Translations under genes and position numbers: made by a program
Part shown: piece by piece, positions 3,272 to 64,000 of the stretch
Position numbering within the stretch: position 1 is the first letter of the stretch
Layout: each line of letters begins with the position of its first letter
From: Parcubacteria group bacterium Gr01-1014_17
GTDB lineage: Bacteria > Patescibacteriota > Minisyncoccia > Phycocordibacterales > UBA10002
Assembly (NCBI GenBank): GCA_007376285.1
Contig: VMFZ01000001.1
Coordinates: 11,033 to 75,032 of the forward strand
Direction: 5' to 3'
Length of the DNA stretch: 64,000 nt
The notes under the pieces: generated by a model
Told to the model about the DNA's origin: nothing
The model's database searches: none
What the model saw: the letters and a program-made list of their open reading frames with translations, nothing else

Positions 3272-4993
3272 CTATGCCGATGAAGCACGCTTAATTTCCT
3301 CAATCCGCATACGAAGCGATTGAAGTTGCGTCAGAAGTTCCATTCGGCGCGCTTCGTCGGCAGTTCCTCGTTCCGTAACGGTAAGTTCGTTAAGTATTTT
3401 TGCGGATTTTCTTTCTAATTCTTCCTTTTCAATATGAAACAGTAGCACACGCACTTCTTTTTCAAGAGACGGCACCTCGGCGAATCGCGCTTCTGCTTCA
3501 AAAATATGCGTATCTCGCTCGTTTTCCCCGAGTGCCGAAAGCAATAATGAGAGTTTTCCTGAAATTGCGTTTATCTCTTCTTTTAATTTCTCCGTATCAA
3601 CTTTTCGCTCTCCCTCTGGAAGTTTCTCTTGCCAAAATATAATACCGGCAAGAAGACGAACTGCTTCTGGAACAGCGTTCCCGACTTTGTTTGTTGGGAG
3701 TTGGTTGTTGGGAGTTGGTTGTTGCACCGGCAAACGCTTCAAATCATCCCAAACCGCATCCTCGCGCACCTCAAGCGCTCCCGCAATTTCCTTCACAAAT
3801 TCCGCGCGCTCAATTGCGCTCTTGATGTCGCGTACAAACGGGAGCACTTCGTCGCGCAAAAGGCGCGCGCGCTCCCGCCCTGTTTTCGCGCGCGTAAGCG
3901 CGCGCTCAAAAAGAAACCGCACAAAATGCATACTGTTTTTAATCCCATGTGCAAAATCCGCCGGATTTTTCCAAATGATATCCGCTGGGTCTTTTCCGCC
4001 AGAGAGCGCCGCGATTTTCACCGCCATTCCCTTTTGCAGTGCCGCAGAAACCGCGCGGAGCGCTGCCTTTTCCCCAGCCGCATCCACATCGTATGCAAGC
4101 AGAAGATTTTCAGAAAACCGCCGCAGAAGATCTAAATGTTCGTGAGTCAGCGCTGTGCCGGATGCCGCGACTGCATTTTCAAACCCCGCCTGATGGCACA
4201 TAATCAAATCCACTTGACCTTCTACCAAAAGCGCGTAGCCGCGCTCGCGAATCTTGTGTTTTGCGCGGTGGATGCCGTAGAGCGCCGACGACTTGCGCCA
4301 CACTTCCGTCTCGGGCGAATTCACATATTTCGGAGTACCCTCTTCTTCTTTCCCAAAGATGCGCCCAGAGAACGCAATCACGCGACCTGCGGAATCAAAA
4401 ATCGGAAACATAATCCGATTGCGAAACACATCATATGGCTCGCCTTTTTTCTCAACCGACTGTTTAATAAGCCCCGCGCGAAAAAGCTCCTGCTCGGAAA
4501 ACTTTTTTGCAAGCAAATGCGCGCGAAGCGCGCGCCAAGAATCCGGCGCAAACCCAATGCGCCACATCTCTATAGTTTTAGGCAACACGCCGCGCTCAGT
4601 GAGATATTTGCGCGCGTCCGCGCGCAAAGCAAACTCTCCTTCAAAAAACCGTGTCGCTTCCTCAAGCGCTGCAAACAAACGGTCGCGGGCATCATTTTCT
4701 TGCGCGTGAAAGCGAGTAAGAGGCACACCAGCACGCTCGGCAAGAATTTTTAAGGCACCTTTGAAATCGACCCCCTCCATCTTTTCCACAAAAGAAAAGA
4801 TATCGCCTTTTTCCCCGCATCCAAAACAATAAAAAGAACCGCGCGATGTCGATACGAAAAACGACGCGGTCTTCTCGTGATGGAGCGGGCACTTTGCCTT
4901 CAAGTTCGCGCCAGCGCGCTCCAGCTTCAGATATGCTCCCACGACCTCTTCCGCTCCCAATCGCGCCTTTATTTCTTCAACAGGAGATGACAT
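3272..4993 (-). CDS. dnaG: DNA primase
   Basis: CHC2 zinc finger CPLHHEKTASF..FYCFGCGEKGD, TOPRIM core; 573 aa. Confidence 0.92.
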   Translation of the reverse strand: MSSPVEEIKARLGAEEVVGAYLKLERAGANLKAKCPLHHEKTASFFVSTSRGSFYCFGCGEKGDIFSFVEKMEGVDFKGALKILAERAGVPLTRFHAQENDARDRLFAALEEATRFFEGEFALRADARKYLTERGVLPKTIEMWRIGFAPDSWRALRAHLLAKKFSEQELFRAGLIKQSVEKKGEPYDVFRNRIMFPIFDSAGRVIAFSGRIFGKEEEGTPKYVNSPETEVWRKSSALYGIHRAKHKIRERGYALLVEGQVDLIMCHQAGFENAVAASGTALTHEHLDLLRRFSENLLLAYDVDAAGEKAALRAVSAALQKGMAVKIAALSGGKDPADIIWKNPADFAHGIKNSMHFVRFLFERALTRAKTGRERARLLRDEVLPFVRDIKSAIERAEFVKEIAGALEVREDAVWDDLKRLPVQQPTPNNQLPTNKVGNAVPEAVRLLAGIIFWQEKLPEGERKVDTEKLKEEINAISGKLSLLLSALGENERDTHIFEAEARFAEVPSLEKEVRVLLFHIEKEELERKSAKILNELTVTERGTADEARRMELLTQLQSLRMRIEEIKRASSA

Positions 4994-12652: not shown

Positions 12653-12661
12653 ATACCACAG

Positions 12662-12728
12662 ACACCCGATGTTTGCCGCCTATTCCGCCTCATCGGCGGA
12701 TCGCCGAAAAGGAGACAACATTGGGTGT
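12662..12728. repeat. GC-rich nested palindromic element (family H: ACACCCGATGTTTGCC..CGCCTCATCGGCGG.TCGCCGA..GACAACAT.GGGTGT)
   Basis: long hairpin; family members at 21924, 23229, 31789, 32761, 35328, 37280, 46531, 54121. Confidence 0.7.
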
Positions 12729-18666: not shown

Positions 18667-18860
18667 AGGAGAATGGTGCAGACAGTATGCCTGTTTTTCC
18701 GACAAATGAAAACGCTTGACATAATTTAACTTAACCAATATACTTATATTCCGAAGCAAAAGTATCGCTAAATGCGCTCGACGCGCACGCCGCATGGTTC
18801 GCCCAGCGGCTTTTTTTATTCCCCCCAACCCATTTCTTTTTTTTATTCCTTCTTCTCCAA

Positions 18861-18898
18861 CTATTCCAACTACTTGCTATAGCAGATAAATGGAAGAG
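18861..18898. repeat. 38-bp imperfect palindrome CTATTCCAACTACTTGCTATAGCAG.TAA.TGGAA.AG, copy 1
   Basis: centre TTGCTATAGCAA is a perfect palindrome; copies at 19510-19549 and 37213-37250. Confidence 0.7.
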
Positions 18899-18901
18899 GT
18901 G

Positions 18902-19483
18902 TTATTTCTTGAGTTCAAAATGACGGAGCAACTCGGCTTCGTGAGAGATAGTAGAAAGCGTTGCATAACGGACAAAATACCGCACATTGAAAAATGTGGC
19001 AATAAAATCAATCTCGTCACGGCAAGGATACGGATGTACGAACACCGACTTTTGCCAATGATAAAAGTCCAAATCGTACAGTTTCAATCGAAGCGACTCG
19101 CGCGCGGTTTTCCAGCCCTCGGGAATATCAAAAAAAACCGCGTGCCATATCCCGTCCCATTGTGTTGGCTTCGCTATCTCCATTTTGTGCAGATGAAAGG
19201 TGAGCGCCCGCTTTTTTCCGCGTTCCAAAAGAACCACGGTTCGTGTTCCGCCTTCATCTTCTTCTATACTGACTAATTGTTCATCTTCAAATTCCCGAAT
19301 AATACGATAGAGATAGGCGCGGTTAATCTGTTTCCATTCTTTCGCCAACTCTTCAAAAATCCGAAACTGCCGTGGTAGGGTTCCGGCAAAACTAAGCGCC
19401 ACGCCCGCTTGCAGTAACAGAAGCACTTTCTGCTTGACGGGACTAGAGATGCGTCTTTTGCGTACAAAGATTGTTTTTCTCAT
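18902..19483 (-). CDS. PaaX-like regulator (N-terminal wHTH plus C-terminal Cas2-fold PaaX_C-like domain), flanked by inverted repeats
   Basis: 193 aa; C-terminal DGIWHAVFFDIPEGWKTARESLRLKLYDLDFYHWQKSVFVHPY resembles the PaaX C-domain. Confidence 0.5.
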   Translation of the reverse strand: MRKTIFVRKRRISSPVKQKVLLLLQAGVALSFAGTLPRQFRIFEELAKEWKQINRAYLYRIIREFEDEQLVSIEEDEGGTRTVVLLERGKKRALTFHLHKMEIAKPTQWDGIWHAVFFDIPEGWKTARESLRLKLYDLDFYHWQKSVFVHPYPCRDEIDFIATFFNVRYFVRYATLSTISHEAELLRHFELKK

Positions 19484-19509
19484 TTCTTTTATCTTATTTT
19501 ATTTTGATA

Positions 19510-19549
19510 CCTCTCCCAACTACTTGCTATAGCAAGTAACTGGAATAGG
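19510..19549. repeat. 38-40-bp imperfect palindrome, copy 2, 27 bp upstream of the PaaX-like start
   Basis: CCAACTACTTGCTATAGCAAGTAACTGG. Confidence 0.7.
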
Positions 19550-19571
19550 TCACCATTACACCAATAAGTTG

Positions 19572-21902: not shown

Positions 21903-21923
21903 AGCGCCATTATACAAGAAAAA

Positions 21924-21960
21924 GGCACCCGATGTTTGCCGCCTATCAACATCGGGTGCC
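21924..21960. repeat. family-H short palindrome GGCACCCGATGTTTGCCGCCTATCAACATCGGGTGCC in the ddl/MFS divergent region
   Basis: perfect inverted arms read in the sequence. Confidence 0.7.
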
Positions 21961-21984
21961 ATACCGCTATGCTACAATATATAC

Positions 21985-32440: not shown

Positions 32441-32830
32441 CGCTTTTATACAAACATTTTGCCCTCCTCATCGGCGGGCAAGCAAAATGACTGGATACAC
32501 TATCTTTGGCGGTCGCAAAGTTTAGTGTATATAGAAAGTTCTACCATACTACAAAGTATGAGAGAAGAAATTAGAGCGAACGAAACTCGTTGAGGCGCGC
32601 AGGTTTGCAAACATGGGTAAGGCACGAAGCGAAATGCTTTTTCAAAATGTCTGGAGCGAGTGGTCGCATTGCAGCGACCCGAGCGTTACCGAGGACTTTT
32701 GTAAAAAGCATTTTGCGGAGTGTCTTCCTTTCAATGCGCGCCGAGAAAGAGTTCTAAGAGACACCAGATGTTTGCCATCTATCCCGCCTCATCGGCGGGT
32801 CGCCGAGGAGGAGACAACATCTGGTGTCAA
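32440..32830. repeat. mosaic repeat island A with four modules: ATTTTGCC..GGCAAAAT hairpin (32456-32488), ACACTATCTTTGGCG..AGTGT (32497-32528), AGAGCGAACGAAACTCGTTGAGGCGCGCAGGTTTG (32573-32607), family-H palindrome (32761-32828)
   Basis: modules shared in the same order and orientation with island B (37100-37530) and partly with 59604-59660. Confidence 0.7.
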
Positions 32831-35316: not shown

Positions 35317-35327
35317 ATTTATTCTCT

Positions 35328-35396
35328 GGCGCCCGATGTTTGCCGCCTATCCCGCCTCATCGGCGGGTCGCCGAGGAGGAGACAACATCGGGTGCC
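35328..35396. repeat. family-H palindrome immediately upstream of the ClpA/B-like start codon
   Basis: GGCGCCCGATGTTTGCCGCCTATCCCGCCTCATCGGCGGGTCGCCGAGGAGGAGACAACATCGGGTGCC. Confidence 0.7.
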
Positions 35397-37099: not shown

Positions 37100-37530
37100 A
37101 TTCTCACGAATTAGTCCATACAAGTATTTTGCCCGCCTCATCGGCGGACAGGCAAAATACTGAAATACACTATCTTTGGCGACCTCTAGAGATAGTATGG
37201 GTATTCGCCTGACTATTCCAACTACTTGCTATAGCAGTTAATTGGAATAGTGAATAGTAATAGTGATAAAAATCACGGAGGCACCAGATGTCTAAATTGC
37301 AGACATCTGGTGCCGAAAAAAGAGCGAGCAAACTCGTTGAGGCGCGCAGGTTTGAGACGCCCTTGCGCAATCTGAAAACACGAAAGCGAGGAAGTACCTA
37401 TGCCGAGACGGCGAGGAGGCGAACGGCCATGGACTCCCGAGCGAAGCGAGGGAGGAGTGAGCCGAGCGGATAAGGCAAAATTCCTCGGAGGGGAATTTTG
37501 CCGGTCTCGGCAGAGGTAGCTTCCGAGCGC
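37100..37530. repeat. mosaic repeat island B: ATTTTGCC hairpin (37126-37158), ACACTATCT element (37167-37197), PaaX-type palindrome copy 3 (37213-37250), GGCACCAGATGTCT hairpin (37280-37314), AGAGCGAGCAAACTCGTTGAGGCGCGCAGGTTTG (37321-37354), GGCAAAATTCCTCGGAGGGGAATTTTGCC hairpin (37474-37502)
   Basis: direct-repeat partner of island A. Confidence 0.7.
37288..37473 (+). CDS. putative 61-aa highly basic small protein (weak resemblance to the ribosomal protein S21 C-terminal half)
   Basis: GGAGG 8 nt upstream of an ATG that lies inside the hairpin arm; K/R-rich; a decayed fragment of the same ORF occurs in island A. Confidence 0.3.
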   Translation: MSKLQTSGAEKRASKLVEARRFETPLRNLKTRKRGSTYAETARRRTAMDSRAKRGRSEPSG

Positions 37531-43226: not shown

Positions 43227-44897
43227 ATGAAATCCCTTTCCAACGCGCGGATTGCGGAACTGCTTGGTGAAACGGCGGCGCTGTATGAAATAGAAAACGA
43301 GCCGTTTAAGCCGCGCGCCTACGAGCGCGCGGCGCTTGCGATTGAAGCGCGCGAGGAGCCGCTCTACGAAACAATGGCGCGCGGCGGACCTAAAGCGCTT
43401 CAAGAAATCCCCGGCATCGGGGCAGGCATTGCGGCACACCTTGCGGAGCTCCTCGCGCGCGGCACCTTTGCGGAATACGAACGGCTCAAAAAAAAGACGC
43501 CAGTTGCCGTTGGCGAACTTGTTGCCGTGGAAGGCATCGGACCGAAAACCGTTAAAACGCTTTGGGAGAAATTGAAAATAAAAAATCTGGACGAACTGGA
43601 GGCAGCGGCGCGCGGAGGCAAGCTCCGCGCGCTCGCGGGCTTCGGGGAAAAAAGCGAGGAAAAAATCCTCAAAGGTATTGCGTTCCGGCGCACCGTTGGC
43701 GGGAGAATGATTTTGGGCGCAGTGCTTCCAGTGGCGCATGCGTTAGAAAATAAACTTCGCGCATTCCAAGAAGTAAAAAACGCGATTGTCGCGGGCTCCA
43801 TCCGCAGGATGAAAGAAACCGTGGGTGATATTGACTTACTCGTCGTATCAGAAAAACCAGAAGAGACAATGAAAAAAATTGCGGGGCTTCCCGAAATAGA
43901 GCATGTCAATGTGCACATCGTCCAGCCAGAGTCGTGGGGCGCAGCGCTTAATTATTTTACTGGTTCAAAAGCGCATAACATCGCACTTCGCGAGATTGCG
44001 ATTAAAAAAGGGTGGGAATTAAATGAGTATGGATTACTTAAAACAGAAAAAGAACTTTATGAAAAACTTGGGCTTAAATACATTGAACCGGAATTACGCG
44101 AAATGACTGGGGAAATTGAGGCAAGTAAGAATGGGAAACTCCCACATCTTGTCGGTTACAACGACTTAAAAGGCGACCTACAGGCGCACTCAACTTGGAC
44201 TGACGGCACGCGTTCTATTGAAGAAATGGCGCGTGCCGCGGCAGAGCTTGGCTTGGAATACATTGCAATGACCGACCACACGCAAGGGCTTGCGATGACC
44301 GGCGGAATGAACGAAAAAGAATTTGCGGAACAAGCGAAGGAAATTGACGCGCTTAATGATAGATTCAAGAAACAAGAAACACGATTCAAGATACTAAAGA
44401 GCGCGGAAGTTAATATAAAAAAAGACGGCTCGCTTGACCTTGCGGACGAAGCGCTCGCGCAAATGGACTTTGCCGGCGCGTCCGTGCACAGCCACTTTGA
44501 ACTTTCGGTTAAAGAACAGACGAAACGGCTTATTAAGGCGATTGAACATCCGCTTATTGACATCATCTTCCACCCAACAGCGCGCCTCTTAAACAAGCGG
44601 CCTGGAATTTCTGCGGATTGGAGCGAGGTGATTGCCGCGGCAAAAGAAAACGTCACCGCGCTTGAGATTGACGCAGCGCCGGAGCGCCTTGACCTGCACG
44701 ACGAGCTCATACGGCAGTGCGTAAACGCGGGAGTGATGCTCTCTATTGGATCTGACGCTCACTCGCCCGATGGGTTTAGGGCGCTCAAACTCGGCATTGC
44801 GCAAGCCCGCCGCGGCTGGGCGGAAAAGAAAAATATCGTGAATGTGCTACCGGTAGAGAAGATGCTTAAAATGCTAAAGAGGAATCGAGAAAAATAA
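43227..44897 (+). CDS. DNA polymerase X family protein (Pol beta-like core plus C-terminal PHP phosphoesterase domain)
   Basis: helix-hairpin-helix IPGIGAGIA, nucleotidyltransferase GDIDLLV, PHP motifs HTQGLAMTGG / HSHF. Confidence 0.88.
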   Translation: MKSLSNARIAELLGETAALYEIENEPFKPRAYERAALAIEAREEPLYETMARGGPKALQEIPGIGAGIAAHLAELLARGTFAEYERLKKKTPVAVGELVAVEGIGPKTVKTLWEKLKIKNLDELEAAARGGKLRALAGFGEKSEEKILKGIAFRRTVGGRMILGAVLPVAHALENKLRAFQEVKNAIVAGSIRRMKETVGDIDLLVVSEKPEETMKKIAGLPEIEHVNVHIVQPESWGAALNYFTGSKAHNIALREIAIKKGWELNEYGLLKTEKELYEKLGLKYIEPELREMTGEIEASKNGKLPHLVGYNDLKGDLQAHSTWTDGTRSIEEMARAAAELGLEYIAMTDHTQGLAMTGGMNEKEFAEQAKEIDALNDRFKKQETRFKILKSAEVNIKKDGSLDLADEALAQMDFAGASVHSHFELSVKEQTKRLIKAIEHPLIDIIFHPTARLLNKRPGISADWSEVIAAAKENVTALEIDAAPERLDLHDELIRQCVNAGVMLSIGSDAHSPDGFRALKLGIAQARRGWAEKKNIVNVLPVEKMLKMLKRNREK

Positions 44898-44899
44898 AT

Positions 44900-44950
44900 C
44901 ACCCCCTCACCCTACCCTCTCCCCCTTATGAAAAGGGCGAGAGGGGTTTT
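44900..44950 (+). terminator. GC-rich hairpin CCCTCTCCCCCTTATGAAAAGGGCGAGAGGGG + TTTTTCTTTTTTT; a second hairpin CCCT..AGGG follows (bidirectional)
   Basis: stem plus T-run after the polX stop. Confidence 0.65.
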
Positions 44951-45000
44951 TCTTTTTTTACCCTGCCCTTAACCTAAGGGGAGGGAAAGGAAGGGGTGTA

Positions 45001-45339
45001 TTATACGGCAACCCGCCGCACATTGAACAAGCGCGAGACGCGCGTTAAGTCGCGCACGGCAAACACGGAGAGAACTGCGAGCGCGAGTGAGAGCGCTTGA
45101 ACAGTGAGTTCGGTATTAAGAAACGCTGAGAGCACAAATTTGCCGAATGCCGCAAACTCTGCCGGAGACGGCATATTGCCGAACACATTTTGCACCGACA
45201 CAAACGCAGTCGCGACAAGCGCGAGCGCCGCGACCGAGCCCATTTTCAAAAGAAACGGCTTCACCACTTTACGCAAAAAGAAGACCACATACACGCGCCG
45301 CATCACATCGCGCCTTACTGATTGAATATATTCAGCCAT
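45001..45339 (-). CDS. putative anti-sigma factor-like membrane protein
   Basis: 112 aa with 2 TM helices; 2 nt downstream of the ECF sigma gene in the same operon. Confidence 0.35.
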   Translation of the reverse strand: MAEYIQSVRRDVMRRVYVVFFLRKVVKPFLLKMGSVAALALVATAFVSVQNVFGNMPSPAEFAAFGKFVLSAFLNTELTVQALSLALAVLSVFAVRDLTRVSRLFNVRRVAV

Positions 45340-49402: not shown

Positions 49403-50183
49403 ATTCATCATTCCAGCATTACTTGCGGCGGTTGTTTGGGCGGTATGGTTAAAGCCCACCACGACCAGTAGTGCAATCGCGGGTACAGAAGGACCACCCA
49501 CACCATCTGTTTCGTTGGATACTAAAGTTAAAACGATTGTGAAATGGGCGGTTGGAGTGCTTGGCGGATTGCTCATTATCTACGGCGTGTGGAGCGGGAA
49601 TTGGCGTGCATGGTGGAATGGTTCCGTCACTTATGTTGCAGACACATTGGGGCTATTTGGCCACTATTGGCTCATCGTGCTCGGTGCGGTCGTCTTGCTT
49701 CTTCTGCTTTGTTACGCGGGAGCAAGAGACGGCAAAACCGCTGGCGAGCGAATTGAAAAAGCAATGAAAATTGGTTTCTCCTTCGCAGTCCTTGCGGCGC
49801 TTCTCGCCGTTACCGCAGTGTTCGGCATAATCATTGTCGGACCGCGGTACTTCTGGGGCGAGCCGAGTGTGATTCAGGTTCAGCAACCGGCGACGCAAAG
49901 GCAAGCACAAACGCAGACTTCGTCGCGATCCTTCACCACAACAGCACATCCTGGCGATCCGCAAGACCCGCGCGCTCCGTGGAGCGCGTCAGTTGTCGTA
50001 AATGGCAGGCGTTTCAGCGCCGATGTGGTCGGCGCACAAAGCACGGTACCGATGGCGGTACTTGCAGATGGAGTGGTTCACATAATCGCTCCAGGATTGC
50101 GGCCGCACATTGGTGCGCCGCAAGAAATCCGGTTTCTATCGCTCACCAACTTTCCGCTTCATATAATCGGTACGATTGAGTGA
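49395..50183 (+). CDS. SPFH-associated 3-TM membrane protein D1 (NfeD-like by position only)
   Basis: 8-nt overlap with the SPFH-B stop (ATGTTTGA); paralogue of 51459-52145 (shared GPRYFWGEPSVIQVQQ, FLSLTN). Confidence 0.55.
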   Translation: MFEFIIPALLAAVVWAVWLKPTTTSSAIAGTEGPPTPSVSLDTKVKTIVKWAVGVLGGLLIIYGVWSGNWRAWWNGSVTYVADTLGLFGHYWLIVLGAVVLLLLLCYAGARDGKTAGERIEKAMKIGFSFAVLAALLAVTAVFGIIIVGPRYFWGEPSVIQVQQPATQRQAQTQTSSRSFTTTAHPGDPQDPRAPWSASVVVNGRRFSADVVGAQSTVPMAVLADGVVHIIAPGLRPHIGAPQEIRFLSLTNFPLHIIGTIE

Positions 50184-51459: not shown

Positions 51460-52145
51460 TGACCTTTGCAATCGATAAATGGAAAAAGAATGTGTGGAAA
51501 ATCGCTCTATGGAGCGCGTTTGGTCTTTTGGCAATTAAGTTTGCTATTTGGCCATTACTTCAGGGCACATACGACAAAGTCCGTTCGGTTGGAAAAAAAG
51601 AAATCGGGATTGTTGAATGGTTGCCGAACTTAGGTCCCTATTGGCTCGTAGCACTTGGTGCAGTCGTTTTGTTTCTCCTGCTCATATATGCAGGAGCGAA
51701 AGACGGCAAGACCGCAAGCGAGCGGCTCCAAAAAGCAATCAAGATTGGTTTTGCATTTGCTGGACTTGCGGCGCTTCTCGCCTTTACCGCGTTTCTCGGC
51801 ATTTTCATTGTCGGGCCGCGGTACTTCTGGGGCGAACCGAGCGTCATTCAGGTTCAACAACAGCCGGCGGCGCAGGTGCGGGCATCGGAATTTCCAAAAG
51901 AGTTCCGCGTGTCTGCGCTTCCGGGAAACCCGCAAGACCCAAACGCGCCGTGGAGCGCGCCGATACGGTTTGCAGGGCGGCGCGGAAGTTTCCAACTTGC
52001 GGGCGATTCTGCGCCAATCGCCGTAAAAACAGAAGTGGGCATCCACATAATTACAGTAGGGATGCCCCACCTGGGCACACCAGAGCGATTGCAGTTTCTA
52101 TCACTCACCAACCGCTCCCTTGAAATCACGGGGAGAGTTGAATGA
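51459..52145 (+). CDS. SPFH-associated 3-TM membrane protein D2 (paralogue of D1)
   Basis: start overlaps the SPFH-C stop; shared motifs with D1. Confidence 0.55.
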   Translation: MTFAIDKWKKNVWKIALWSAFGLLAIKFAIWPLLQGTYDKVRSVGKKEIGIVEWLPNLGPYWLVALGAVVLFLLLIYAGAKDGKTASERLQKAIKIGFAFAGLAALLAFTAFLGIFIVGPRYFWGEPSVIQVQQQPAAQVRASEFPKEFRVSALPGNPQDPNAPWSAPIRFAGRRGSFQLAGDSAPIAVKTEVGIHIITVGMPHLGTPERLQFLSLTNRSLEITGRVE

Positions 52146-52448: not shown

Positions 52449-52451
52449 TAA

Positions 52452-52808
52452 CTAAAAATTGAGCAAACCTGGAACATTCGGTAAGTTTTGACCAGCCCCC
52501 TGACCACCTCCGGTAAATGTGTTTTGCAAAAGCTTTACAAGACCAAAGATTGAAAAAGCAACGAACATACCGATAACCGCGTAAATCATAGTATTACGCG
52601 CTGAAGTTCGCTTTTCTTCATCTCCGCCAGAATTGACATATCCAATCACACCAACAAAGAAATAAATAAGCAAAAGTCCCCCTACAATAGGAATAACGAG
52701 GTTAATGATTTGTCCAACTGTCGTTGCCAAACCTCCTAGATTTCCCGTTTGCGCCAACGCCACAAATGGCACTGCATACAACGCCGCACTGACTAATACT
52801 TTTTTCAT
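52452..52808 (-). CDS. VirB2/TrbC-like pilin-family protein P5
   Basis: signal peptide + helix + SGGDEEKRTSARNTMIYAVIGMF + helix. Confidence 0.55.
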   Translation of the reverse strand: MKKVLVSAALYAVPFVALAQTGNLGGLATTVGQIINLVIPIVGGLLLIYFFVGVIGYVNSGGDEEKRTSARNTMIYAVIGMFVAFSIFGLVKLLQNTFTGGGQGAGQNLPNVPGLLNF

Positions 52809-52993
52809 AATATCCTTTTTAATAAACTAATAAATAATTATGACCTTTTTTTAATGACCGCTTTATATTATATACCATCCAAAAGACCTGCAACAGAGAT
52901 GCTGTGGACAACACCACTCCGCCTCGCTTCGCTCGGCACCCCTCCTCAGTTGAGGAGGGGAAAGGGGTGGTGGTGTTTGATATCGTGGACAAA

Positions 52994-53395
52994 TCAGGGA
53001 AGCCTCGGCACGATTGGGATATCGCCAGGGTTTAGGTGAATAAATGGACTACCGGGTAAGAAAAAGGTGTTGCGCACAAGATTTACTAACCCCCAAACGC
53101 TAAACATCACAAACATACCGATAACGGCATAAATCATATAACTGCGCGCCGCCGCCTGTTTTTCTTCATTGTCGGCTTTGAGGACATACTGGATAATTCC
53201 CCAGAAGAACCAAATGAGCGCCAAAGCGCCGACGATAAAACTGACTAAACTCAGAAGGTCTAGCAATATAAGAACAATGTTGCCGAGCGGGGTTCGCGCC
53301 GCAGGGTTGAGCAAGAGTTGAGTGCGAAGCGGTTGCGCGAATACAAAGAGAGGTAGAATAAATAACAAAAAAGAAGAAAAGATAAATTTTTTCAT
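52994..53395 (-). CDS. VirB2/TrbC-like pilin-family protein P4
   Basis: KADNEEKQAAARSYMIYAVIGMF loop between two helices; start at MKKFIF. Confidence 0.55.
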   Translation of the reverse strand: MKKFIFSSFLLFILPLFVFAQPLRTQLLLNPAARTPLGNIVLILLDLLSLVSFIVGALALIWFFWGIIQYVLKADNEEKQAAARSYMIYAVIGMFVMFSVWGLVNLVRNTFFLPGSPFIHLNPGDIPIVPRLP

Positions 53396-53399
53396 ATAT

Positions 53400-53720
53400 T
53401 TAATTGCAGTTGCCGGGGCCAAGCAAGCTTAAACAAATAATTTTGGCTGCGCCCCAATACACCAATAACGCCGCAAGACCGAGAACTCCGAAAAGCGCCG
53501 TTTGTTTGAACGCGCTCATTTTTTTCTCATCTCCACCGCCTCCCGCTCCGATATATCCGGCTATTTTTGCAAATACGACAAACCAAGCAAGAATGAGAAT
53601 GGCAAAAAGCGCCACATTAATATGGTCCAGCGTTAAATTAATCAACCCTTTAAAATCGGTTGGTGCGGCGAGGGCAAAAGATGGGGCAAATGCAAGAAGT
53701 GTTGGAAATAATTTCTTCAT
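53400..53720 (-). CDS. VirB2/TrbC-like pilin-family protein P3
   Basis: signal peptide MKKLFPTLLAFAPSFALA; GAGGGGDEKKMSAFKQTALFGVLG. Confidence 0.55.
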   Translation of the reverse strand: MKKLFPTLLAFAPSFALAAPTDFKGLINLTLDHINVALFAILILAWFVVFAKIAGYIGAGGGGDEKKMSAFKQTALFGVLGLAALLVYWGAAKIICLSLLGPGNCN

Positions 53721-53721
53721 T

Positions 53722-54102
53722 TTATTTCAACGAATTGATAGTGGTTTCCAAGATTGTTGCAAGCGCTTGCGCACCAAGCAATATCGCCGTGCCGATGACT
53801 GCGTATAAAATCGCTTTTTTTGCATCTTTGTGCTTTTCTTCGTTGCCGCCAGCGGTCACAAACAAAAATCCAGCGTAAATAATGAAAAATACTGCGACCA
53901 CGCCACCTATATCGGAAACAATCACGAGTATCTTCGCCGCAAGCGCTTGAAAGGTTGTGGTTGCACCGAGTGGGTTTGGTAAGGTGGTTAAACCCCCACC
54001 GGTAACTCCAGTACCTCCTCCGGTAACGCCTGTGTGTTGTGTAGCGGACGCCTCTCCAGCGGAAAGCAGAAACCCTATTATTACCCAAAATGTCTTTTGC
54101 AT
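53722..54102 (-). CDS. VirB2/TrbC-like pilin-family protein P2 (Gly/Thr-rich N-region)
   Basis: TAGGNEEKHKDAKKAILYAVIGTA loop motif; start at Met58; family-H palindrome 54121-54158 in the 5' UTR. Confidence 0.55.
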   Translation of the reverse strand: MQKTFWVIIGFLLSAGEASATQHTGVTGGGTGVTGGGLTTLPNPLGATTTFQALAAKILVIVSDIGGVVAVFFIIYAGFLFVTAGGNEEKHKDAKKAILYAVIGTAILLGAQALATILETTINSLK

Positions 54103-54176
54103 AGTGTTAAGTATATCACGAGGAGGCACCAGATGTTTGCCGCCTATCAACATCTGGTGCCACTTCCCTACCACAA

Positions 54177-54578
54177 TCAACCCCCAAGAAAAGAGAAGGC
54201 ACTTGGAACACCGAGTCCAATCAAAATCAATTTGACAATAAGCCATGCAGAAAGCATCCAGACAAAACCCCATACGACTGGCATAAACATTCCGCGTCCT
54301 TTTTCCATTTTGGATTCATTGCCCCCTGCGGTCAAAATGAGAAACCCGGCATAGGCAAACACCAGCGCGGCAATTGAACCGCCAATCATAATCAGAAAGT
54401 TAATGATATTATTGATGCCGATGATGAAGTGGCGAAATTCGCAGGGGTTTGAGATCTCTTCGTACGAACCAGTCGCACCAGTTACAGTCCGTGTCTCCGT
54501 TCCGCACGGCACGATTGGGGCGGCGTGGGCAAAGATAGGTAAAATCACAAAAATAGAAATTAGTGCGAGTATATACAT
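54177..54578 (-). CDS. VirB2/TrbC-like pilin-family protein P1
   Basis: TAGGNESKMEKGRGMF loop motif between helices; start at Met32, because the ORF's N-terminal 31 aa are a translation of repeat R1. Confidence 0.55.
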   Translation of the reverse strand: MYILALISIFVILPIFAHAAPIVPCGTETRTVTGATGSYEEISNPCEFRHFIIGINNIINFLIMIGGSIAALVFAYAGFLILTAGGNESKMEKGRGMFMPVVWGFVWMLSAWLIVKLILIGLGVPSAFSFLGG

Positions 54579-54660
54579 CCTCCGTCTCCCTACGGGAGAC
54601 ACCTCCCTCAAGGGAGGATTTTCTTTACTCCCCCTTTGAAGGGGGGTTGGGGGGATGTGA
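54578..54660. repeat. triple-hairpin GC repeat R1 (GTCTCCC..GGGAGAC / CCTCCCTCAAGGGAGG / CCCCCTTTGAAGGGGGG + TTGGGGGGATGT)
   Basis: about 85 nt; near-identical copies R2 (63303-63385) and R3 (63760-63850, inside a CDS). Confidence 0.75.
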
Positions 54661-54667
54661 TTTTTAT

Positions 54668-55948
54668 TCATCTTAATAATCTCTCTAACCCGCTCCGCAG
54701 GTCGCCGACGCCATTAGTAAGCTGTCCTCTACCGCCGGTAATATCTTCAACGACCGACTGGAATAATTTGGTCGTTTCGGTCGGATTCGGGTCAAGGAAA
54801 CTCCGCGCCTGTAAGGCCGCTTCGTAAAACACCGATTTCGCCGCGCTCTCTTGCTTGCGCTCTAAAAGCGCGCGGAGCGGCGGCACGGTGCCGAGTGCAT
54901 TGGCTAAGGTAACCGACCTTTGAGAATCCGCGAGTGCAAACCCGAGTCGTATCGCTCCGCCCGGATTTTTTCCGGTTTTCAGCGCAGCCAACCCCCATGT
55001 TTTGCCGAACGAAACCGTGAGCTTTGAATCCCGCGTCTGCGGAAACGGCGTTGCCGACATATTCAAATGCGGATTTTTCTCGCGAAGCCCTGCATATTCC
55101 GACGCAAAGCCGAAATAAAGCGCGAGGTCTCCAGACGCAAACATATTGTGCGATTGTGGAAGCCCGCGGTTCCAGGTGTAAAGCTTTTTTACTGGGTTCG
55201 CAAACTCCGTGAAAAACCCGAGTGCGCTTCCAGCATTTGCCCAGTCCTCAAGCGAAACCGCGAATCCTTCCGTTCCGCCCGCCTGTACGGGCAGGCGCGA
55301 AACAAGCTTGCCGCCGCTTTGGAAAAAGAGCGCCGAGAGAATCTCTTTTGCATTGGTAATGTTCCGAAATTCTCCAAGCGACACCGCCGCGCTCTGAATT
55401 TGCCCCAGCCGGTTGCGCACGACAAGCCGCGGCGTACCGGTAATCAATTCATCCCAATAGCGCGGCGGTCGCGCAATGTTTGCCGCACCAAACCGGTCGC
55501 GATTCCAATATGCGACCAGCGGGTCTACCGTAAGAGGGACCGCGATGGCTCCAGTTGTGCTCAAAAACACTTCTGCAGCTTCTACAAACGAGTCCTTAAA
55601 CTTCCGCTCCGAAAGCGTATCTAAAGGAATCGGCACAATTTTGTCGCCATGCCGCACCACGAGGTCGGATGGTAAAATAATTGCATCAGGACCTCTCCCT
55701 GCCGCGAGCGCTTCTATAAACTCCTGCTCAAACTTGTCTGCGCGAATCTCAGTGTATGTAAGCTTAAAATCATCTCCAGAAAAATCTGCTGTCGCGGTGG
55801 AAAACGCAGAACTCGGAAACGAGCCCCATACATCAAGCACCGCTGGTCCGCCACCCGCGGGCGTGCCTTTGAAAAGAGAAAAAGCAACCAGACCGCCAAT
55901 GGCGGCTATCACAAAAACAGCGAGCAAAATTATTTGAAATGGTCTCAT
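54668..55948 (-). CDS. membrane-anchored extracellular solute-binding protein (ABC-type SBP family 1-like)
   Basis: N-terminal TM anchor, 426 aa, two-lobe SBP-like composition; no specific substrate assignable. Confidence 0.55.
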   Translation of the reverse strand: MRPFQIILLAVFVIAAIGGLVAFSLFKGTPAGGGPAVLDVWGSFPSSAFSTATADFSGDDFKLTYTEIRADKFEQEFIEALAAGRGPDAIILPSDLVVRHGDKIVPIPLDTLSERKFKDSFVEAAEVFLSTTGAIAVPLTVDPLVAYWNRDRFGAANIARPPRYWDELITGTPRLVVRNRLGQIQSAAVSLGEFRNITNAKEILSALFFQSGGKLVSRLPVQAGGTEGFAVSLEDWANAGSALGFFTEFANPVKKLYTWNRGLPQSHNMFASGDLALYFGFASEYAGLREKNPHLNMSATPFPQTRDSKLTVSFGKTWGLAALKTGKNPGGAIRLGFALADSQRSVTLANALGTVPPLRALLERKQESAAKSVFYEAALQARSFLDPNPTETTKLFQSVVEDITGGRGQLTNGVGDLRSGLERLLR

Positions 55949-59555: not shown

Positions 59556-59730
59556 AAACCGACTCGCGACCCGTAAGTACTTTTGTACTGCGGGTCTGTT
59601 TTTTATACAGCTATTTTGCAAAATACTGAAATACACTATCTATGGCGACCGCAAAAGTTAGTGTGCACGCATTTAGCATTAAGATACGGCCGTAGCTTAT
59701 TGCTACAAAATCCTACCCCAACCCCCTCCT

Positions 59731-60099
59731 TTATAAAGGAGGGGGAAATTCAAAGGGAGTGGATTTTATATCTTCCTCCTGCCTCTGAAATTCCACGGGT
59801 TTGCCGAAATCAAATCCTTTCCACAAGTCCCCGATTTTGCGCACTTGACTGGCGAGAAATATCGCCGCATCTGCCATCTCCGCTCTGAAATTTGAAAGTG
59901 GCCCGGCGACATCATCTGCCGGCACGCTTGAGGTTGCTTGCACGGTCTCGGCTATGCGCGGAGTATCACCAGACGGACTTCCCGAAAAATAAAACCACGC
60001 GCCTCCGATCGCTCCAGTCAAAAGAAGTGCGACAACAAACGCAATGCGCTCGTGGTGAGCGTTCTCGGGGTCGTTGAGTTTTTCAAACAATCCAAACAT
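59731..60099 (-). CDS. hypothetical membrane protein
   Basis: 122 aa with one TM; the 3' end runs into the perfect palindrome CCCCCTCCTTTATAAAGGAGGGGG (59715-59745). Confidence 0.4.
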   Translation of the reverse strand: MFGLFEKLNDPENAHHERIAFVVALLLTGAIGGAWFYFSGSPSGDTPRIAETVQATSSVPADDVAGPLSNFRAEMADAAIFLASQVRKIGDLWKGFDFGKPVEFQRQEEDIKSTPFEFPPPL

Positions 60100-61450: not shown

Positions 61451-62419
61451 TCAAACTATTAGATTCGGCGGTGTTTTACCTTCAAAAAACGAAATAAGAT
61501 TGCGTGCGGCGAGCTCAGCCATCTCTTTGCGCGCCAACTCGGTTGCTGAGGCGATGTGAGGAGTGAGTACAACATTCGGGAGTTTCGCCAGCCCTTTTGC
61601 GAGCTTCGGTTCAAATTCAAACACATCAAGCCCAGCGCCAGCTATCACTCCTCGCCGAAGCGCCTCCACGAGCGCGCACTCGTCAACTACGGGCCCGCGC
61701 GAAGTGTTTATAAGATAAGCGGTCTTTTTCATAATCGCCAATCTCTCTTTGTTCATCAGATGCCGTGTCGCGTCAGACAAAGGAACATGAAGCGAGACCA
61801 CATCGGCGACCCGGAGTACTTCTTCAACGGTCTGGTAAAACACGGCTCCGAAGTCCTTTTCAAGTTTTTCGTTGCGCACGATATCGTAATACGCCACCTC
61901 CATCATAAATCCATTTCTTGCCCGATGCGCCACATCAGCCCCGATGCGCCCCGTACCGATAATGCCGAGTGTTTTTCCGGCAAGATTCGTGCCGTGCAAA
62001 AGCATCGGGTCCCAACCCTTATACTTTCCTTTCTTTATATAGACATCCCCCTCCACGATACGGCAGGTGAGCGCAAGAATAAGCCCCCACGCATGCTCCG
62101 CTACTCGCTCTGCACCGCCACCTGGCGTGTTGGTAAGCGTAACGCCCCGCGCCTTCGCCGCCGCGAGGTCAAAATTGTTAAAGCCGATTGCATAATTCGC
62201 AAAAATCTTCACCGACGGCGCTGCATCCATCACCTCAGCGTCAATCGCATCAGTCAAAAGCGAGAGCACGCTGTCGTAGTTTCCTTTTCGGAGCACTTTA
62301 ATAAGCTCTCGTTTAGTGAGCGGACGATTTTTAGAAGACACATCAACCGCAAAGTCATTCTCGCGAAGCAGAGCGAGTCCGTTTTCCGGAATCCTGCGCG
62401 TGACGAAAATCTTTTTCAT
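61451..62419 (-). CDS. D-isomer-specific 2-hydroxyacid dehydrogenase (glycerate/hydroxypyruvate reductase-like)
   Basis: NAD-binding GIIGTGRIG, catalytic RG..H/E residues; 322 aa. Confidence 0.85.
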   Translation of the reverse strand: MKKIFVTRRIPENGLALLRENDFAVDVSSKNRPLTKRELIKVLRKGNYDSVLSLLTDAIDAEVMDAAPSVKIFANYAIGFNNFDLAAAKARGVTLTNTPGGGAERVAEHAWGLILALTCRIVEGDVYIKKGKYKGWDPMLLHGTNLAGKTLGIIGTGRIGADVAHRARNGFMMEVAYYDIVRNEKLEKDFGAVFYQTVEEVLRVADVVSLHVPLSDATRHLMNKERLAIMKKTAYLINTSRGPVVDECALVEALRRGVIAGAGLDVFEFEPKLAKGLAKLPNVVLTPHIASATELARKEMAELAARNLISFFEGKTPPNLIV

Positions 62420-63279
62420 GTGTTAAATATCTTTAGTTTTTCCTCAACTACCTTTACTACAGAGTGCATCGGCTCTTTGAGATATTTATACGGCGCAAGT
62501 TCGTCTTGATTTTCTTCCAAACCGCGCACGAGCCCTTTGCGATATGCCGCCCTCAACTCCGTGTTTATATGCACGACCGCGACCCCTGCCGCAATTGCCG
62601 CGCGAATATCTTCCGCACTGTTACCAGACGCGCCGTGAAGCACAAGCGGAACGCCAGCCGCTTCGCGAATCGCGCGGATGCGCGCGATGTCAAGCGCTGG
62701 GTCTGCGCCGCCCTCTAACATCCCGTGAATATTGCCTACCGCAGGAGCGAATAAATCCACTCCAGTTTCTTGCGCAAACCGCGCTGCATCCTCTGGTGCC
62801 GTTAAATATTCTGGAGATATTTTTACTCCATCAGGAATTTTCTTAAGTATCTGTGATGCTTTTCCGATAAACCCAAGCTCGCCCTCAACTACCACATCGC
62901 GCCCTGACGCGCGCGCATACGCGACACATTCTTTCGCCATAGCGGCATTTTCTGCAAACGGCAATCCAGCGCCATCTACAATAACAGCGTCAAACCCAAC
63001 ATCTACCGCCTCTTTTACTTTTTCAAAAGAATAGGAATGGTCTGCGTTTAAAAATATTGGGTGGCCGTATTCATCGCGGAAACTTCGCACGAGCGCAACG
63101 GCCTGTGCGAGCCCAACAAAACTGCGCTCGCCTTCGGACAAACCAACAATGACAGGCACACCGACCGCTCGCGCTGATTGAACGATAGCGCGTAGAGTTT
63201 CTAAATTGGAAAAATTGAAATGTCCAATGGCGCGTTTTGCCACCTCCGCTTCTGCGATACATTCCCGCAAGGTTTGCAT
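62416..63279 (-). CDS. fba: class II fructose-bisphosphate aldolase (FbaA/TBP aldolase family)
   Basis: HFNFSNLE..VPVIVGLSEGE..DHSYSFE Zn-ligand blocks; strong similarity to the short Gram-positive FbaA type. Confidence 0.85.
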   Translation of the reverse strand: MQTLRECIAEAEVAKRAIGHFNFSNLETLRAIVQSARAVGVPVIVGLSEGERSFVGLAQAVALVRSFRDEYGHPIFLNADHSYSFEKVKEAVDVGFDAVIVDGAGLPFAENAAMAKECVAYARASGRDVVVEGELGFIGKASQILKKIPDGVKISPEYLTAPEDAARFAQETGVDLFAPAVGNIHGMLEGGADPALDIARIRAIREAAGVPLVLHGASGNSAEDIRAAIAAGVAVVHINTELRAAYRKGLVRGLEENQDELAPYKYLKEPMHSVVKVVEEKLKIFNT

Positions 63280-63302
63280 GAGATATAGTATAGCACAATT
63301 AC

Positions 63303-63385
63303 ATCCCTCCCTCCGCCTACTGGCGGAGTACTCCCCTCAAGGGGAGATTTTCTGAATCCCCCTTGGAAGGGGGTTGGGGGGATGT
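63303..63385. repeat. triple-hairpin GC repeat R2 in the fba/pfkB divergent region, ending GGGGGGATGT + TATAAT 7 nt before the pfkB ATG
   Basis: copy of R1/R3 lacking the first hairpin. Confidence 0.7.
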
Positions 63386-63397
63386 TATAATCCTCTT

Positions 63398-64000
63398 ATG
63401 CAACCATTGAAAAAAGAAAAAGTAAATACGGAATTCATAACCGCACACAAGAATGCAAAAACAAATTACCACTTCGTGCTTTGGTACGGCGCCGAGCGCA
63501 CGATTCTTGTTAAACACGAGCCCTATCAATACGCTCTACCAACCTTGCCGCCCGCTCGCTGGCTCTACCTTTCCTCAATCGGAAGCGGTACCGAAAAATA
63601 TCACGAGGATATTGCCGATTATCTTGCGAAAAACCCGTCCGTAAAATTCGCATTCCAGCCGGGAACATTCCAGATTAAACTTGGCACAGAAAAACTGAAG
63701 GGTCTGTACGAGCGCGCGGAGGTGTTGTTTGTAAATCGTGAGGAAGCGGAAAGAATCACATCCTCCGTCTCCCTTCGGGAGACACCTCCCTCAAGGGAGG
63801 AATTAAAATCCCCCTTTCAAGGGGGTGCCCGAAGGGCGGGGGATGTAAAAACCCTCCTCACAAACCTCCACGCGCTCGGACCAAAAATCGTATGCGTTAC
63901 TGACGGACCGAAAGGCGCATATATGGCGGATGAAAGAGGCGCATACTTTATGCCTCCCTACCCCGACCCCAAGCCGCCTGTTGAGCGCACCGGGGCAGGT
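63398..64000 (+). CDS. PfkB-family carbohydrate/ribokinase-like kinase (partial, runs off the window) with an in-frame 30-codon repeat insertion
   Basis: ALPTLPPARWLYLSS..LGPKIVCVTDGPKGAY..VERTGAGD (DTxGAGD anion-hole motif). Absent from the ORF track because it has no stop in the window; 603 nt = 201 complete codons. Confidence 0.75.
   Translation, partial: MQPLKKEKVNTEFITAHKNAKTNYHFVLWYGAERTILVKHEPYQYALPTLPPARWLYLSSIGSGTEKYHEDIADYLAKNPSVKFAFQPGTFQIKLGTEKLKGLYERAEVLFVNREEAERITSSVSLRETPPSREELKSPFQGGARRAGDVKTLLTNLHALGPKIVCVTDGPKGAYMADERGAYFMPPYPDPKPPVERTGAG
63760..63850. repeat. repeat R3 translated in frame inside pfkB (..TSSVSLRETPPSREELKSPFQGGARRAGDVKT..)
   Basis: near-identical to R1; exactly 90 nt. 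Confidence 0.75.

Follow-up and report, generated by a model that had tools for sequence, protein, structure and literature searches.

The 64,000-nt stretch of Parcubacteria group bacterium Gr01-1014_17 analyzed here, referred to as the window, contains three complete copies of a GC-rich, multi-hairpin repeat, designated R1, R2, and R3. On balance, we favor the reading that they are copies of a small, palindromic mobile element that lack a gene and are non-autonomous, similar to MITEs (miniature transposable elements with inverted repeats) or to REPINs (hairpin-forming doublets of repetitive extragenic palindromic, or REP, sequences), and that their cognate enzyme is a DUF559 nuclease. All three copies were located with a repeat finder and by direct reading; they lie on the + strand in the same orientation and are 84-89 nt long.

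A first-pass annotation of this DNA had described a triple-hairpin GC-rich repeat in three copies, and the analysis bears this out. The gapped pattern CCCTCAAGGGN{20,50}GGGGATGT matched the window exactly three times, at R1-R3, where 0.00 matches were expected from 100 shuffles. Folding z scores of the three copies were -4.4 to -6.8 on both strands, and 0 of 200 dinucleotide shuffles folded as well. The copies also align well beyond their G/C runs, with 74% column identity for R1-R3 including flanks and 74-80% in element alignments of 85-98 columns, loops and spacers included. Covariance-model scores, from a model built on five elements, were 90-97 bits. The parts of each copy are as follows, with hairpins numbered HP1 to HP4.

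54575-54658, + strand: R1, complete miniature element, 84 nt (covariance model 89.8 bits)
54575-54583, + strand: R1 left end, ACATCCTCC
54584-54600, + strand: R1 HP1, GTCTCCC-TAC-GGGAGAC
54602-54617, + strand: R1 HP2, CCTCCC-TCAA-GGGAGG
54618-54629, + strand: R1 A/T spacer, ATTTTCTTTACT
54630-54646, + strand: R1 HP3, CCCCC-TTTGAA-GGGGGG
54649-54658, + strand: R1 right end, GGGGGGATGT
63301-63385, + strand: R2, complete miniature element, 85 nt (covariance model 92 bits)
63311-63328, + strand: R2 HP1
63331-63346, + strand: R2 HP2
63347-63357, + strand: R2 spacer, ATTTTCTGAAT
63358-63373, + strand: R2 HP3
63374-63385, + strand: R2 right end
63758-63846, + strand: R3, complete miniature element with four hairpins, 89 nt
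63767-63783, + strand: R3 HP1
63785-63800, + strand: R3 HP2
63801-63809, + strand: R3 spacer, AATTAAAAT
63810-63825, + strand: R3 HP3
63827-63837, + strand: R3 HP4, GCCCGAAGGGC
63838-63846, + strand: R3 right end, GGGGGATGT

The span initially given for R1, 54578-54660, marks a real element with boundaries that are 2-3 nt off. A terminal inverted repeat of 9-10 nt, ACATCC(Y)CC / GGGGGGATGT, closes the whole structure in all three copies and encloses three hairpins in R1 and R2 and four in R3, all of them C-rich in the 5' arm and G-rich in the 3' arm. The hairpin sequences quoted earlier fit R1 and R3, whereas R2 carries compensated variants of their hairpins 1 and 2 (CTCCGCC-TACT-GGCGGAG and CTCCCCTCAAGGGGAG). 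R3 departs from the proposed common layout in having a fourth hairpin and in missing TTGG. Each copy can be divided into two arms, ACATCC(Y)CC-HP1-HP2 and HP3-(HP4)-GGGGGGATGT, that are inverted repeats of one another; in R3 the arms match at 32 of 44 positions (score 30, compared to -8.8 +/- 7.1 in shuffles). Three of the six reading frames of each element are free of stop codons.

Gene-bearing units and evidence for mobility of the elements

The link to DUF559 comes from longer units with the same ends. In the related contig L002, a small gene in the spacer between the genes for class II fructose-bisphosphate aldolase (fba) and a pfkB-family kinase encodes a DUF559 protein, and tblastn placed DUF559 genes next to elements in L002, L022 (Taylorbacteria), L006 (Aquimarina, Flavobacteria), and L005 (Arenicellales, twice). 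Among the loci derived from the repeat pattern, 3 of about 13 true ones have a DUF559 gene beside the elements, and a covariance-model search identified several elements per locus in many of the fetched loci. A profile search with DUF559 proteins recovered P0124, which is 117 aa long and whose name gives Parcubacteria bacterium Gr01-1014_17 as its source. P0124 is assigned to the same metagenome-assembled genome as the pfkB kinase of the window (P0001), and its contig, L048, comes from a sample that yielded contigs identical to the window.

The 5' part of the L048 unit consists of ACATCCTCC, HP1, CCTCCCTCAAGGGAGG, and ATTTTTTGAGATAAT...ATG (the stretch before the ATG is also given as ATTTTTTGAGATAATAAATAATATTT), and its 3' part of the end of the DUF559 gene (TAA), TTCCCCCCTGAGGGGGG, TGACGAGG..CGAGGCGG, and GGGATGT. 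Those of L002 and L022 are laid out in the same way, and the units are 474-517 nt long. The DUF559 gene and an A/T-rich, promoter-like stretch occupy the place of the 9-12 nt A/T spacer of R1-R3. Because the units share their ends and modules with the short copies, R1-R3 correspond to two unit arms joined by an A/T spacer where the gene would be.

The product of the longer units is a DUF559 nuclease, which is not a recognized transposase. P0124 matches Pfam families PF04480 (DUF559) and PF18741. Its closest solved structure is 3hrl, an uncharacterized "endonuclease-like protein" from Neisseria (E 7e-14), and there is a weak match to the homing endonuclease I-Bth0305I (3r3p, E 0.08). Vsr, DUF559, and DUF2726 have been grouped in one PD-(D/E)xK clade (PMC3424549), and a Vsr-like domain can work as a homing endonuclease on a pseudo-palindromic site (PMC3239194). 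No Y1 transposase was seen beside any element, although the window was not fully screened for one.

By analogy, the DUF559 nuclease probably acts on elements of the R1-R3 type. The arms can fold, as a single strand or a cruciform, into a closed hairpin bundle, and the nuclease would recognize and nick the folded or terminal palindrome. Nicking would then drive copying of both miniature and full-length forms in trans, as REP-associated tyrosine transposases (RAYTs) do for REP sequences and REPINs, with insertion completed by host repair or replication. Within genes, copies would survive only in surface loops and where they keep the frame open.

Orthologous sites with and without elements are evidence of mobility. 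The fba-pfkB spacer is 17 nt long and empty of R2 in L003, contains R2 in the window and identically in the independent assembly L001, holds an orthologue of R2 plus the DUF559 unit and further elements in L002, and carries unrelated GC hairpins in L004. A 1.2-kb segment of L048 holding the DUF559 unit is absent between the orthologous genes of L004. For R1, the contigs found with the neighboring solute-binding protein represent the same strain and are uninformative as to an empty site.

L048, another contig of the same species, has three more complete miniature copies, bringing the total to six in 83 kb. One (approximately 617-725) is read in frame within a DUF192 gene, after the signal anchor and before the domain, and shares the frame of R3 (TSPVSLRETPPSK... 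compared to TSSVSLRETPPSR...). A second provides the last approximately 22 codons and the stop codon of the DUF192 gene. The third (3611-3710) follows a ribonucleotide reductase gene; its internal junction, ATTTTCTGAAT, is the same as in R2, and its fourth hairpin is the reverse complement of HP1 of R1. A near variant of this junction is also found in L022 and L002. That copies at unrelated loci have one junction in common indicates multiplication of the miniature form itself. Where elements are in tandem, they are spaced by A-rich stretches of 8-9 nt.

Distribution of repeats and DUF559 genes

A scan with the strict pattern of GTDB species representatives, among which the source genome is absent, and of JGI metagenomes returned 41 loci, about half of which are chance matches in coding DNA. 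The remaining loci share the design and much of the sequence (ACATCCCCC..CCCCCCTCAAGGGGGG..CCCCCCTTGAGGGGGG..GGGGGATGT). Relatives of the elements were found in Gammaproteobacteria, Deltaproteobacteria, Bacteroidales, Flavobacteria, and genomes of the candidate phyla radiation, and the occurrence of near-identical sequences across phyla suggests horizontal spread. The strict pattern had zero matches on viral contigs. Plasmids and phages were considered as vehicles and set aside, as this DUF559 subfamily is rare on both.

RNAalifold, run on 12 elements from four phyla, predicted an outer stem of 8 bp and 6 bp each for HP2 and HP3. Five pairs are changed on both sides (CG to UA in 3, 4, or 5 sequences) and HP2 has zero one-sided changes, so that the stems stay paired through two-sided substitutions. 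Hairpins that begin with their C-rich arm are more numerous than those that begin with the G-rich arm, 75 to 18 over all loci, and the loops are nearly always TCAA, TTGA, or TGGA. An idea that the loops derive from TCGA by deamination to TTGA/TCAA, and another that the ends contain a GGATG (FokI-type) site, were unsupported and set aside. Together with the alignment, the empty orthologous sites, and the further copies, the two-sided stem changes support the earlier suggestion of a distinct, mobile-looking repeat class. The first-pass annotation had overlooked the terminal inverted repeat, the lack of target-site duplications, the gene-bearing relative, and the spread across phyla.

The association also holds when approached from the protein. 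Loci fetched by DUF559 protein only (from a lineage with a TonB-receptor neighbor, Aminicenantes, a Hyphomicrobiales metagenome-assembled genome, and a 4.8 Mb genome) all have C-arm/G-arm hairpins no more than 200 nt from the gene ends, and hairpin density near DUF559 genes is about 4 per kb, compared to 0-0.7 per kb elsewhere. Five isolates picked by tblastn have the same flanking: Pseudanabaena, Picosynechococcus PCC 7002, Neisseria gonorrhoeae, Sinorhizobium, and Azospirillum. Their flanking sequences form composite palindromes made up of an outer stem plus two inner hairpins, and the flanking elements are dispersed repeat families, with 31-39 places per replicon in Sinorhizobium and 8 on a Pseudanabaena plasmid. 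In all of the approximately 13 lineages sampled, about 10 of them reached through the protein only, DUF559 genes are flanked by lineage-specific repeats of one design.

Two of these loci have additional features. In the 4.8 Mb genome (L062, 1001-1405), the DUF559 gene and its hairpins lie between the gene in the pilN position and pilO, within the normally contiguous pilMNOPQ cluster. In N. gonorrhoeae (L066, 2005-2700), a hairpin pair, CTCTCTCCCTGTGGGAGAGAG / CCCTCCCCCAC(A/G)GGGGAGGG, occurs three times downstream of the DUF559 gene with a period of 281 nt.

In Escherichia coli K-12, a GC palindrome lies approximately 220 nt downstream of ycjD, which encodes a DUF559 protein. The palindrome is found in 5416 E. 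coli genomes, with a median of 15 sites in each, and ycjD is present in 3378 of 5426 complete genomes (62%), always as a single copy. A preprint on the eefABC locus (10.1101/2024.08.01.606150) mentions ycjD nine times, and the ycjD region may be a variable locus. The repeat near ycjD is presumably BoxC. BoxC has been described as a 56-bp sequence with 32 copies in E. coli (PMC2267715). No paper linking DUF559 or ycjD to repeats was found in the searched literature, which covers few subscription-journal papers, and a literature search with raw sequence words returned only unrelated primers.

These observations allow a broader proposal, which we put forward tentatively and do not expect to hold as readily as that for R1-R3: DUF559 (YcjD-like, Vsr-fold) nucleases may be the cognate enzymes of pan-bacterial GC-rich composite palindromic repeats, forming a second partnership of the REP/RAYT kind, with a PD-(D/E)xK nuclease in place of the tyrosine transposase. 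If true, such a pairing would account for the BoxC-type repeats of E. coli, the intergenic palindromes of rhizobia and cyanobacteria, and the in-frame insertions of the candidate phyla radiation.

Several points weigh against pairing R1-R3 with a DUF559 enzyme. The action of DUF559 on the repeats is inferred, and a PD-(D/E)xK nuclease alone is, to our knowledge, not a known transposase. The first-pass annotation had proposed a check for target-site duplications, and none turned up: 15 elements have no flanking direct repeat of at least 2 nt, which leaves a classical cut-and-paste MITE mechanism unsupported. About 13 DUF559 lineages, all from one subfamily, make a small sample, and outside the candidate phyla radiation the gene lies between two complete elements instead of inside one. 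The palindrome is present in 5416 E. coli genomes but ycjD in only 3378 of 5426, so the repeats persist without the gene. Finally, the sequence at the junctions is compatible with both directions, and the gene may have been inserted later into a miniature form that was its intact target.

This last point leads to the alternative that survives best, although we still consider it unlikely: the repeats would be an independent, older class, and DUF559 a free-standing, homing-type selfish gene that targets them. R1-R3 would then be intact, empty targets and the gene-bearing units invaded ones, with the repeats spread by something else, or by nothing any longer. Consistent with this, the gene is always central to, or between, palindromic elements, and E. 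coli genomes without ycjD keep their repeats. Furthermore, Vsr-like homing endonucleases cut pseudo-palindromic sites (PMC3239194), and P0124 has its match to 3r3p. In the L048 unit, the 12 nt that follow HP2 match the R2 spacer ATTTTCTGAAT; the gene cassette thus reads just as well as a clean insertion immediately ahead of HP3. Homing, however, leaves unexplained the spread of the miniature copies, which have one junction in common at unrelated loci. Each lineage-specific repeat family with its matching flanked DUF559 gene fits a cognate pair better than opportunistic invasion, and the single copy of ycjD in E. coli also speaks against a homing gene.

Host genes and other repeats of the window

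The genes around R1 and R2, assigned by Pfam, and a promoter-like site are listed below.

54177-54578, - strand: T4SS_pilin gene, with its likely ATG at 54578-54576 within the R1 left end (GGAGGATGT on the minus strand)
54668-55948, - strand: solute-binding protein gene, stop codon 9 nt from the R1 right end
62416-63279, - strand: class II fructose-bisphosphate aldolase gene (fba), start 21 nt from the R2 left end
63363-63391, + strand: promoter-like site, TTGGAA (HP3 loop of R2), 17 nt, TG, TATAAT, 10 of 12 consensus matches
63398-64000, + strand, running off the window: pfkB-family kinase gene, host of R3 (whole protein P0001, 264 aa)

The terminal ATGT of R1 and R2 had been noted as sitting at or next to the downstream start codon or -10 box. 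In R2, GGGGGGATGT indeed abuts TATAAT, followed by 6 nt and an ATG. For R1 the claim is half right, as the pilin ATG sits in the other end of the element (GGATGT on the minus strand). A longer pilin open reading frame (ORF) starts at 54671, in an ATGA overlap with the stop codon of the upstream gene, and is stop-free through all of R1. R2 separates fba and pfkB, whose starts are divergent. The promoter-like site, a consensus match only, is half R2 and half flanking DNA and ends 6 nt before the pfkB ATG at 63398. From their positions, R2 may supply the -35 and TG of a pfkB promoter, and R1 may supply the pilin ATG, both putative cases of co-option. At approximately 52450-54580, the minus strand carries a row of small, paralogous T4SS_pilin genes, some with GC-hairpin elements between them; the identical contig L046 has five T4SS_pilin genes with PF18895 matches.

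R3 is the copy that had been called coding, and it is translated in frame within pfkB (..EEAERI-TSSVSLRETPPSREELKSPFQGGARRAGDV-KTLL..). The window kinase has 100% identity with a protein recorded for Parcubacteria group bacterium Gr01-1014_17. R3 adds approximately 23-30 residues at a loop where most of 12 aligned homologues have a short linker. The corresponding insert is absent in L004, 20 nt in L002 (ACATCCTCGGCGGGAGATGT), 26 nt in L003 (ACATCGCGAAGCGAGGCGGGAGATGT), and 89 nt in the window, a series that we read as an old insertion, putatively trimmed internally in some lineages. The presence of only ACATCCTCGGCGGGAGATGT in L002 raised the possibility that the outer stem was a pre-existing target in pfkB. 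This is less likely, because L003 retains part of HP4 (GCGAAGCGAGGCGGGAGATGT), which indicates internal deletion of an old insertion. AlphaFold models residues 121-150 with a predicted local distance difference test score (pLDDT) of 48-58, between segments above 90, and the insert fits a tolerated surface excursion.

Other pfkB homologues have different GC-hairpin-like inserts in the R3 loop and two have one elsewhere. The loop appears to be a place where such inserts repeatedly land or are tolerated. Among other Paceibacteria, P0007 and P0011 (also P0004, P0008, and P0009) have different short inserts that look hairpin-encoded, examples being QIPARPNEFGRSGG, which lies at a second site, and two at the site of R3, ..GPRRSPRREGEAAEIF.. 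and PSPLPPPRGG. A census of peptides encoded by in-frame copies gave one spurious repeat protein with exhaustive HMMER and nothing with a 68-aa concatenate. Apart from R3, the window pfkB (compared at 63398-63425) is without 261 nt (87 codons) after ATGCAAC relative to the otherwise identical gene in another assembly (L001, 298-1, minus strand). The deletion is in frame, with the junction ATGCAAC/CATTG, and removes an N-terminal part of the fold; AlphaFold gives residues 1-45 of the window protein a pLDDT below 50. The shortened gene may represent an allele in decay, a variant within the population, or an artefact of assembly.

The same contexts bear on whether the elements are functional cis modules (terminators, insulators, mRNA stabilizers, or promoter parts) kept and duplicated for regulation instead of being selfish, which we regard as improbable. 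HP2 followed by ATTTTCT matches a terminator-like pattern in R1 and R2, the R2 promoter match reaches 10 of 12 with an extended -10, several copies in relatives end in GGATGT/(T)ATAAT shortly upstream of a start codon, and a GC palindrome at 44897-45001 exactly fills the gap between two convergent genes. However, the contexts are mixed and fail as settings for an intrinsic terminator: R1 lies between co-directional genes and is misoriented for its upstream gene, R2 lies between divergent starts, and R3, like a copy on L048, is inside an ORF. In addition, orthologous genes of relatives work without any element, and near-identical elements occur beside unrelated genes in unrelated phyla. Exaptation of single copies is compatible with R1-R3 being copies of a mobile element.

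It is very improbable that the elements are structured small RNA genes, with a cloverleaf-like three- or four-way junction and paralogous copies. The predicted folds are strong on both strands and paired bases change in a compensatory manner, but equally good folding of both strands is what a DNA palindrome predicts. In gathering mode, Rfam found only three tRNAs in the whole window and left the elements uncovered, and its E-value mode on 63250-63900 gave chance-level matches only. ARAGORN made no tRNA- or tmRNA-like call at the elements. One copy is translated within an ORF, and no copy has its own promoter and terminator in consistent orientation. Finally, C runs and G runs are abundant in this sequence, but chance likeness of low-complexity runs is refuted by the pattern count, column identities, and covariance-model scores of the copies and deserves practically no credence.

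Three other hairpin elements in the window had been described as related single hairpins.

52909-52975, - strand: related element with a different outer stem, CACCACCACCCC...GGAGTGGTG (16.6 bits, E 0.18)
44897-45001, - strand: composite GC palindrome of similar design, filling the gap between two convergent genes
59706-59768, - strand: single-hairpin element of similar design, AAAATCC...CCCCCTCCTTTATAAAGGAGGGGG...GGATTTT

The first of these is related through two modules, the HP3-like CCCCTCCTCAACTGAGGAGGGG and HP4-like TGCCGAGCGAAGCGAGGCGG, which it shares with the right arm of DUF559 units (including that of L002). The other two share the design only and have weak covariance-model scores (16-19 bits); a near-copy of 59706-59768 lies on L048 at approximately 17265. 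The 3' part of 44897-45001, GGGGGAGAGGGTAGGGTGAGGGGG, nearly equals the repeat beside E. coli ycjD, with a 22-nt near-identical stretch. This element and E. coli K-12 1351150-1351240 (L063) share GGGG(G)AGAGGGT(T)AGGGTGAGGGG almost exactly despite their phylogenetic distance.

Further repeats in the window belong to other families. Family H has a long form (12660-12728, 32759-32827, and 35327-35395) and a short form (21923-21961 and 54124-54162), the latter a single hairpin, AGGCACC(C/A)GATGTTTGCCGCCTATCAACATC(G/T)GGTGCC. In the long form, two extra hairpins (CCGCCTCATCGGCGG and one of GTCGCC...GGAGAC type) lie within the outer stem of the short form, a nesting logic like that of the R elements, and the first inner hairpin resembles HP1 of R2. 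Two AT-rich families, ACTATTCCAACTACTTGCTATAGCAG... (18831-18928, 19481-19550, and 37183-37280) and GCAAAATACTGAAATACACTATCTTTGGCG (32482-32529, 37152-37199, and 59618-59665), show no relation to the GC hairpins and might represent promoter or regulatory regions that are shared. The copies of a 240-nt direct repeat (49656-49895 and 51630-51869) are 79% identical and lie 1974 nt from each other. A second, shorter pair is close to them (49944 and 51915), and the arrangement resembles a tandem duplication of genes.

Comparison with known systems

REP, BoxC, and Rickettsia palindromic elements, along with unnamed palindromic repeats, are among the least explained features of bacterial genomes, and the DUF559/YcjD proteins form a very common family whose structure has been solved and for which no role is known. 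Their consistent physical link provides each of the two with a testable function. In the candidate phyla radiation, insertions of such elements would explain odd extra loops in conserved enzymes and contig breaks around these genes, and the elements can provide start codons and parts of promoters where intergenic spaces are very short. Fungal mitochondrial GC clusters and double-hairpin elements are also GC-rich hairpin modules that spread in a compact genome, sometimes in frame in coding sequence. These are organellar, and we know of no nuclease gene of the DUF559 family associated with them.

A close parallel is the REP/REPIN-RAYT system (PMC3116915, PMC3337134). In both, short, dispersed, mainly intergenic palindromic hairpins flank a small nuclease-type gene, which in E. 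coli (ycjD) is single copy, two inverted arms form the mobile unit, and there is no target duplication. Unlike RAYTs, which are HUH/Y1 transposases, the gene flanked here encodes a Vsr-like PD-(D/E)xK protein (PF04480/PF18741). Unlike REP sequences, the R elements have no GTAG head, beginning with ACATCC and ending with GGATGT, and they form bundles of two to four hairpins with an outer stem, have in-frame copies inside genes, and occur in near-identical forms across phyla.

With MITEs such as Correia/NEMIS, ERIC, and Nezha (PMC10969869), the R elements share a length below 100 nt, terminal inverted repeats, many copies, presence or absence in relatives, a longer gene-bearing relative with matching ends, and occasional promoter or ORF fusions. 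They differ in having no target-site duplication and a gene-bearing relative without a recognized transposase. Rickettsia palindromic elements (PMC10969869), which inhabit housekeeping genes of a reduced genome, resemble R3 and its DUF192 counterpart in being inserted in frame and stop-free in unrelated genes, with the peptide in a tolerated position. No sequence relationship to them was seen, with no hit in Rfam. Those elements are approximately 150 bp long and have no associated gene, whereas R elements are mostly intergenic and have a candidate cognate gene. E. coli BoxC (PMC2267715) likewise consists of dispersed, GC-rich imperfect palindromes with C-rich and then G-rich arms, but R1-R3 are a different sequence family, and the origin and function of BoxC are not established.

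Vsr-like (EDxHD) homing endonucleases such as I-Bth0305I (PMC3239194, PMC2677866) belong to the same nuclease clade as DUF559 (PMC3424549) and have a selfish lifestyle and a preference for pseudo-palindromic sites. In contrast to the free-standing, repeat-embedded DUF559 genes, they have additional DNA-binding domains and reside within introns or inteins. In-frame palindromic insertions, as in Rickettsia (PMC10969869), and repeats with a cognate flanked gene, as in REP/RAYT (PMC3116915), are thus already known; what would surprise specialists, if it holds, is the link to a Vsr-fold nuclease, along with its phylum-level breadth and its connection to ycjD of E. coli.

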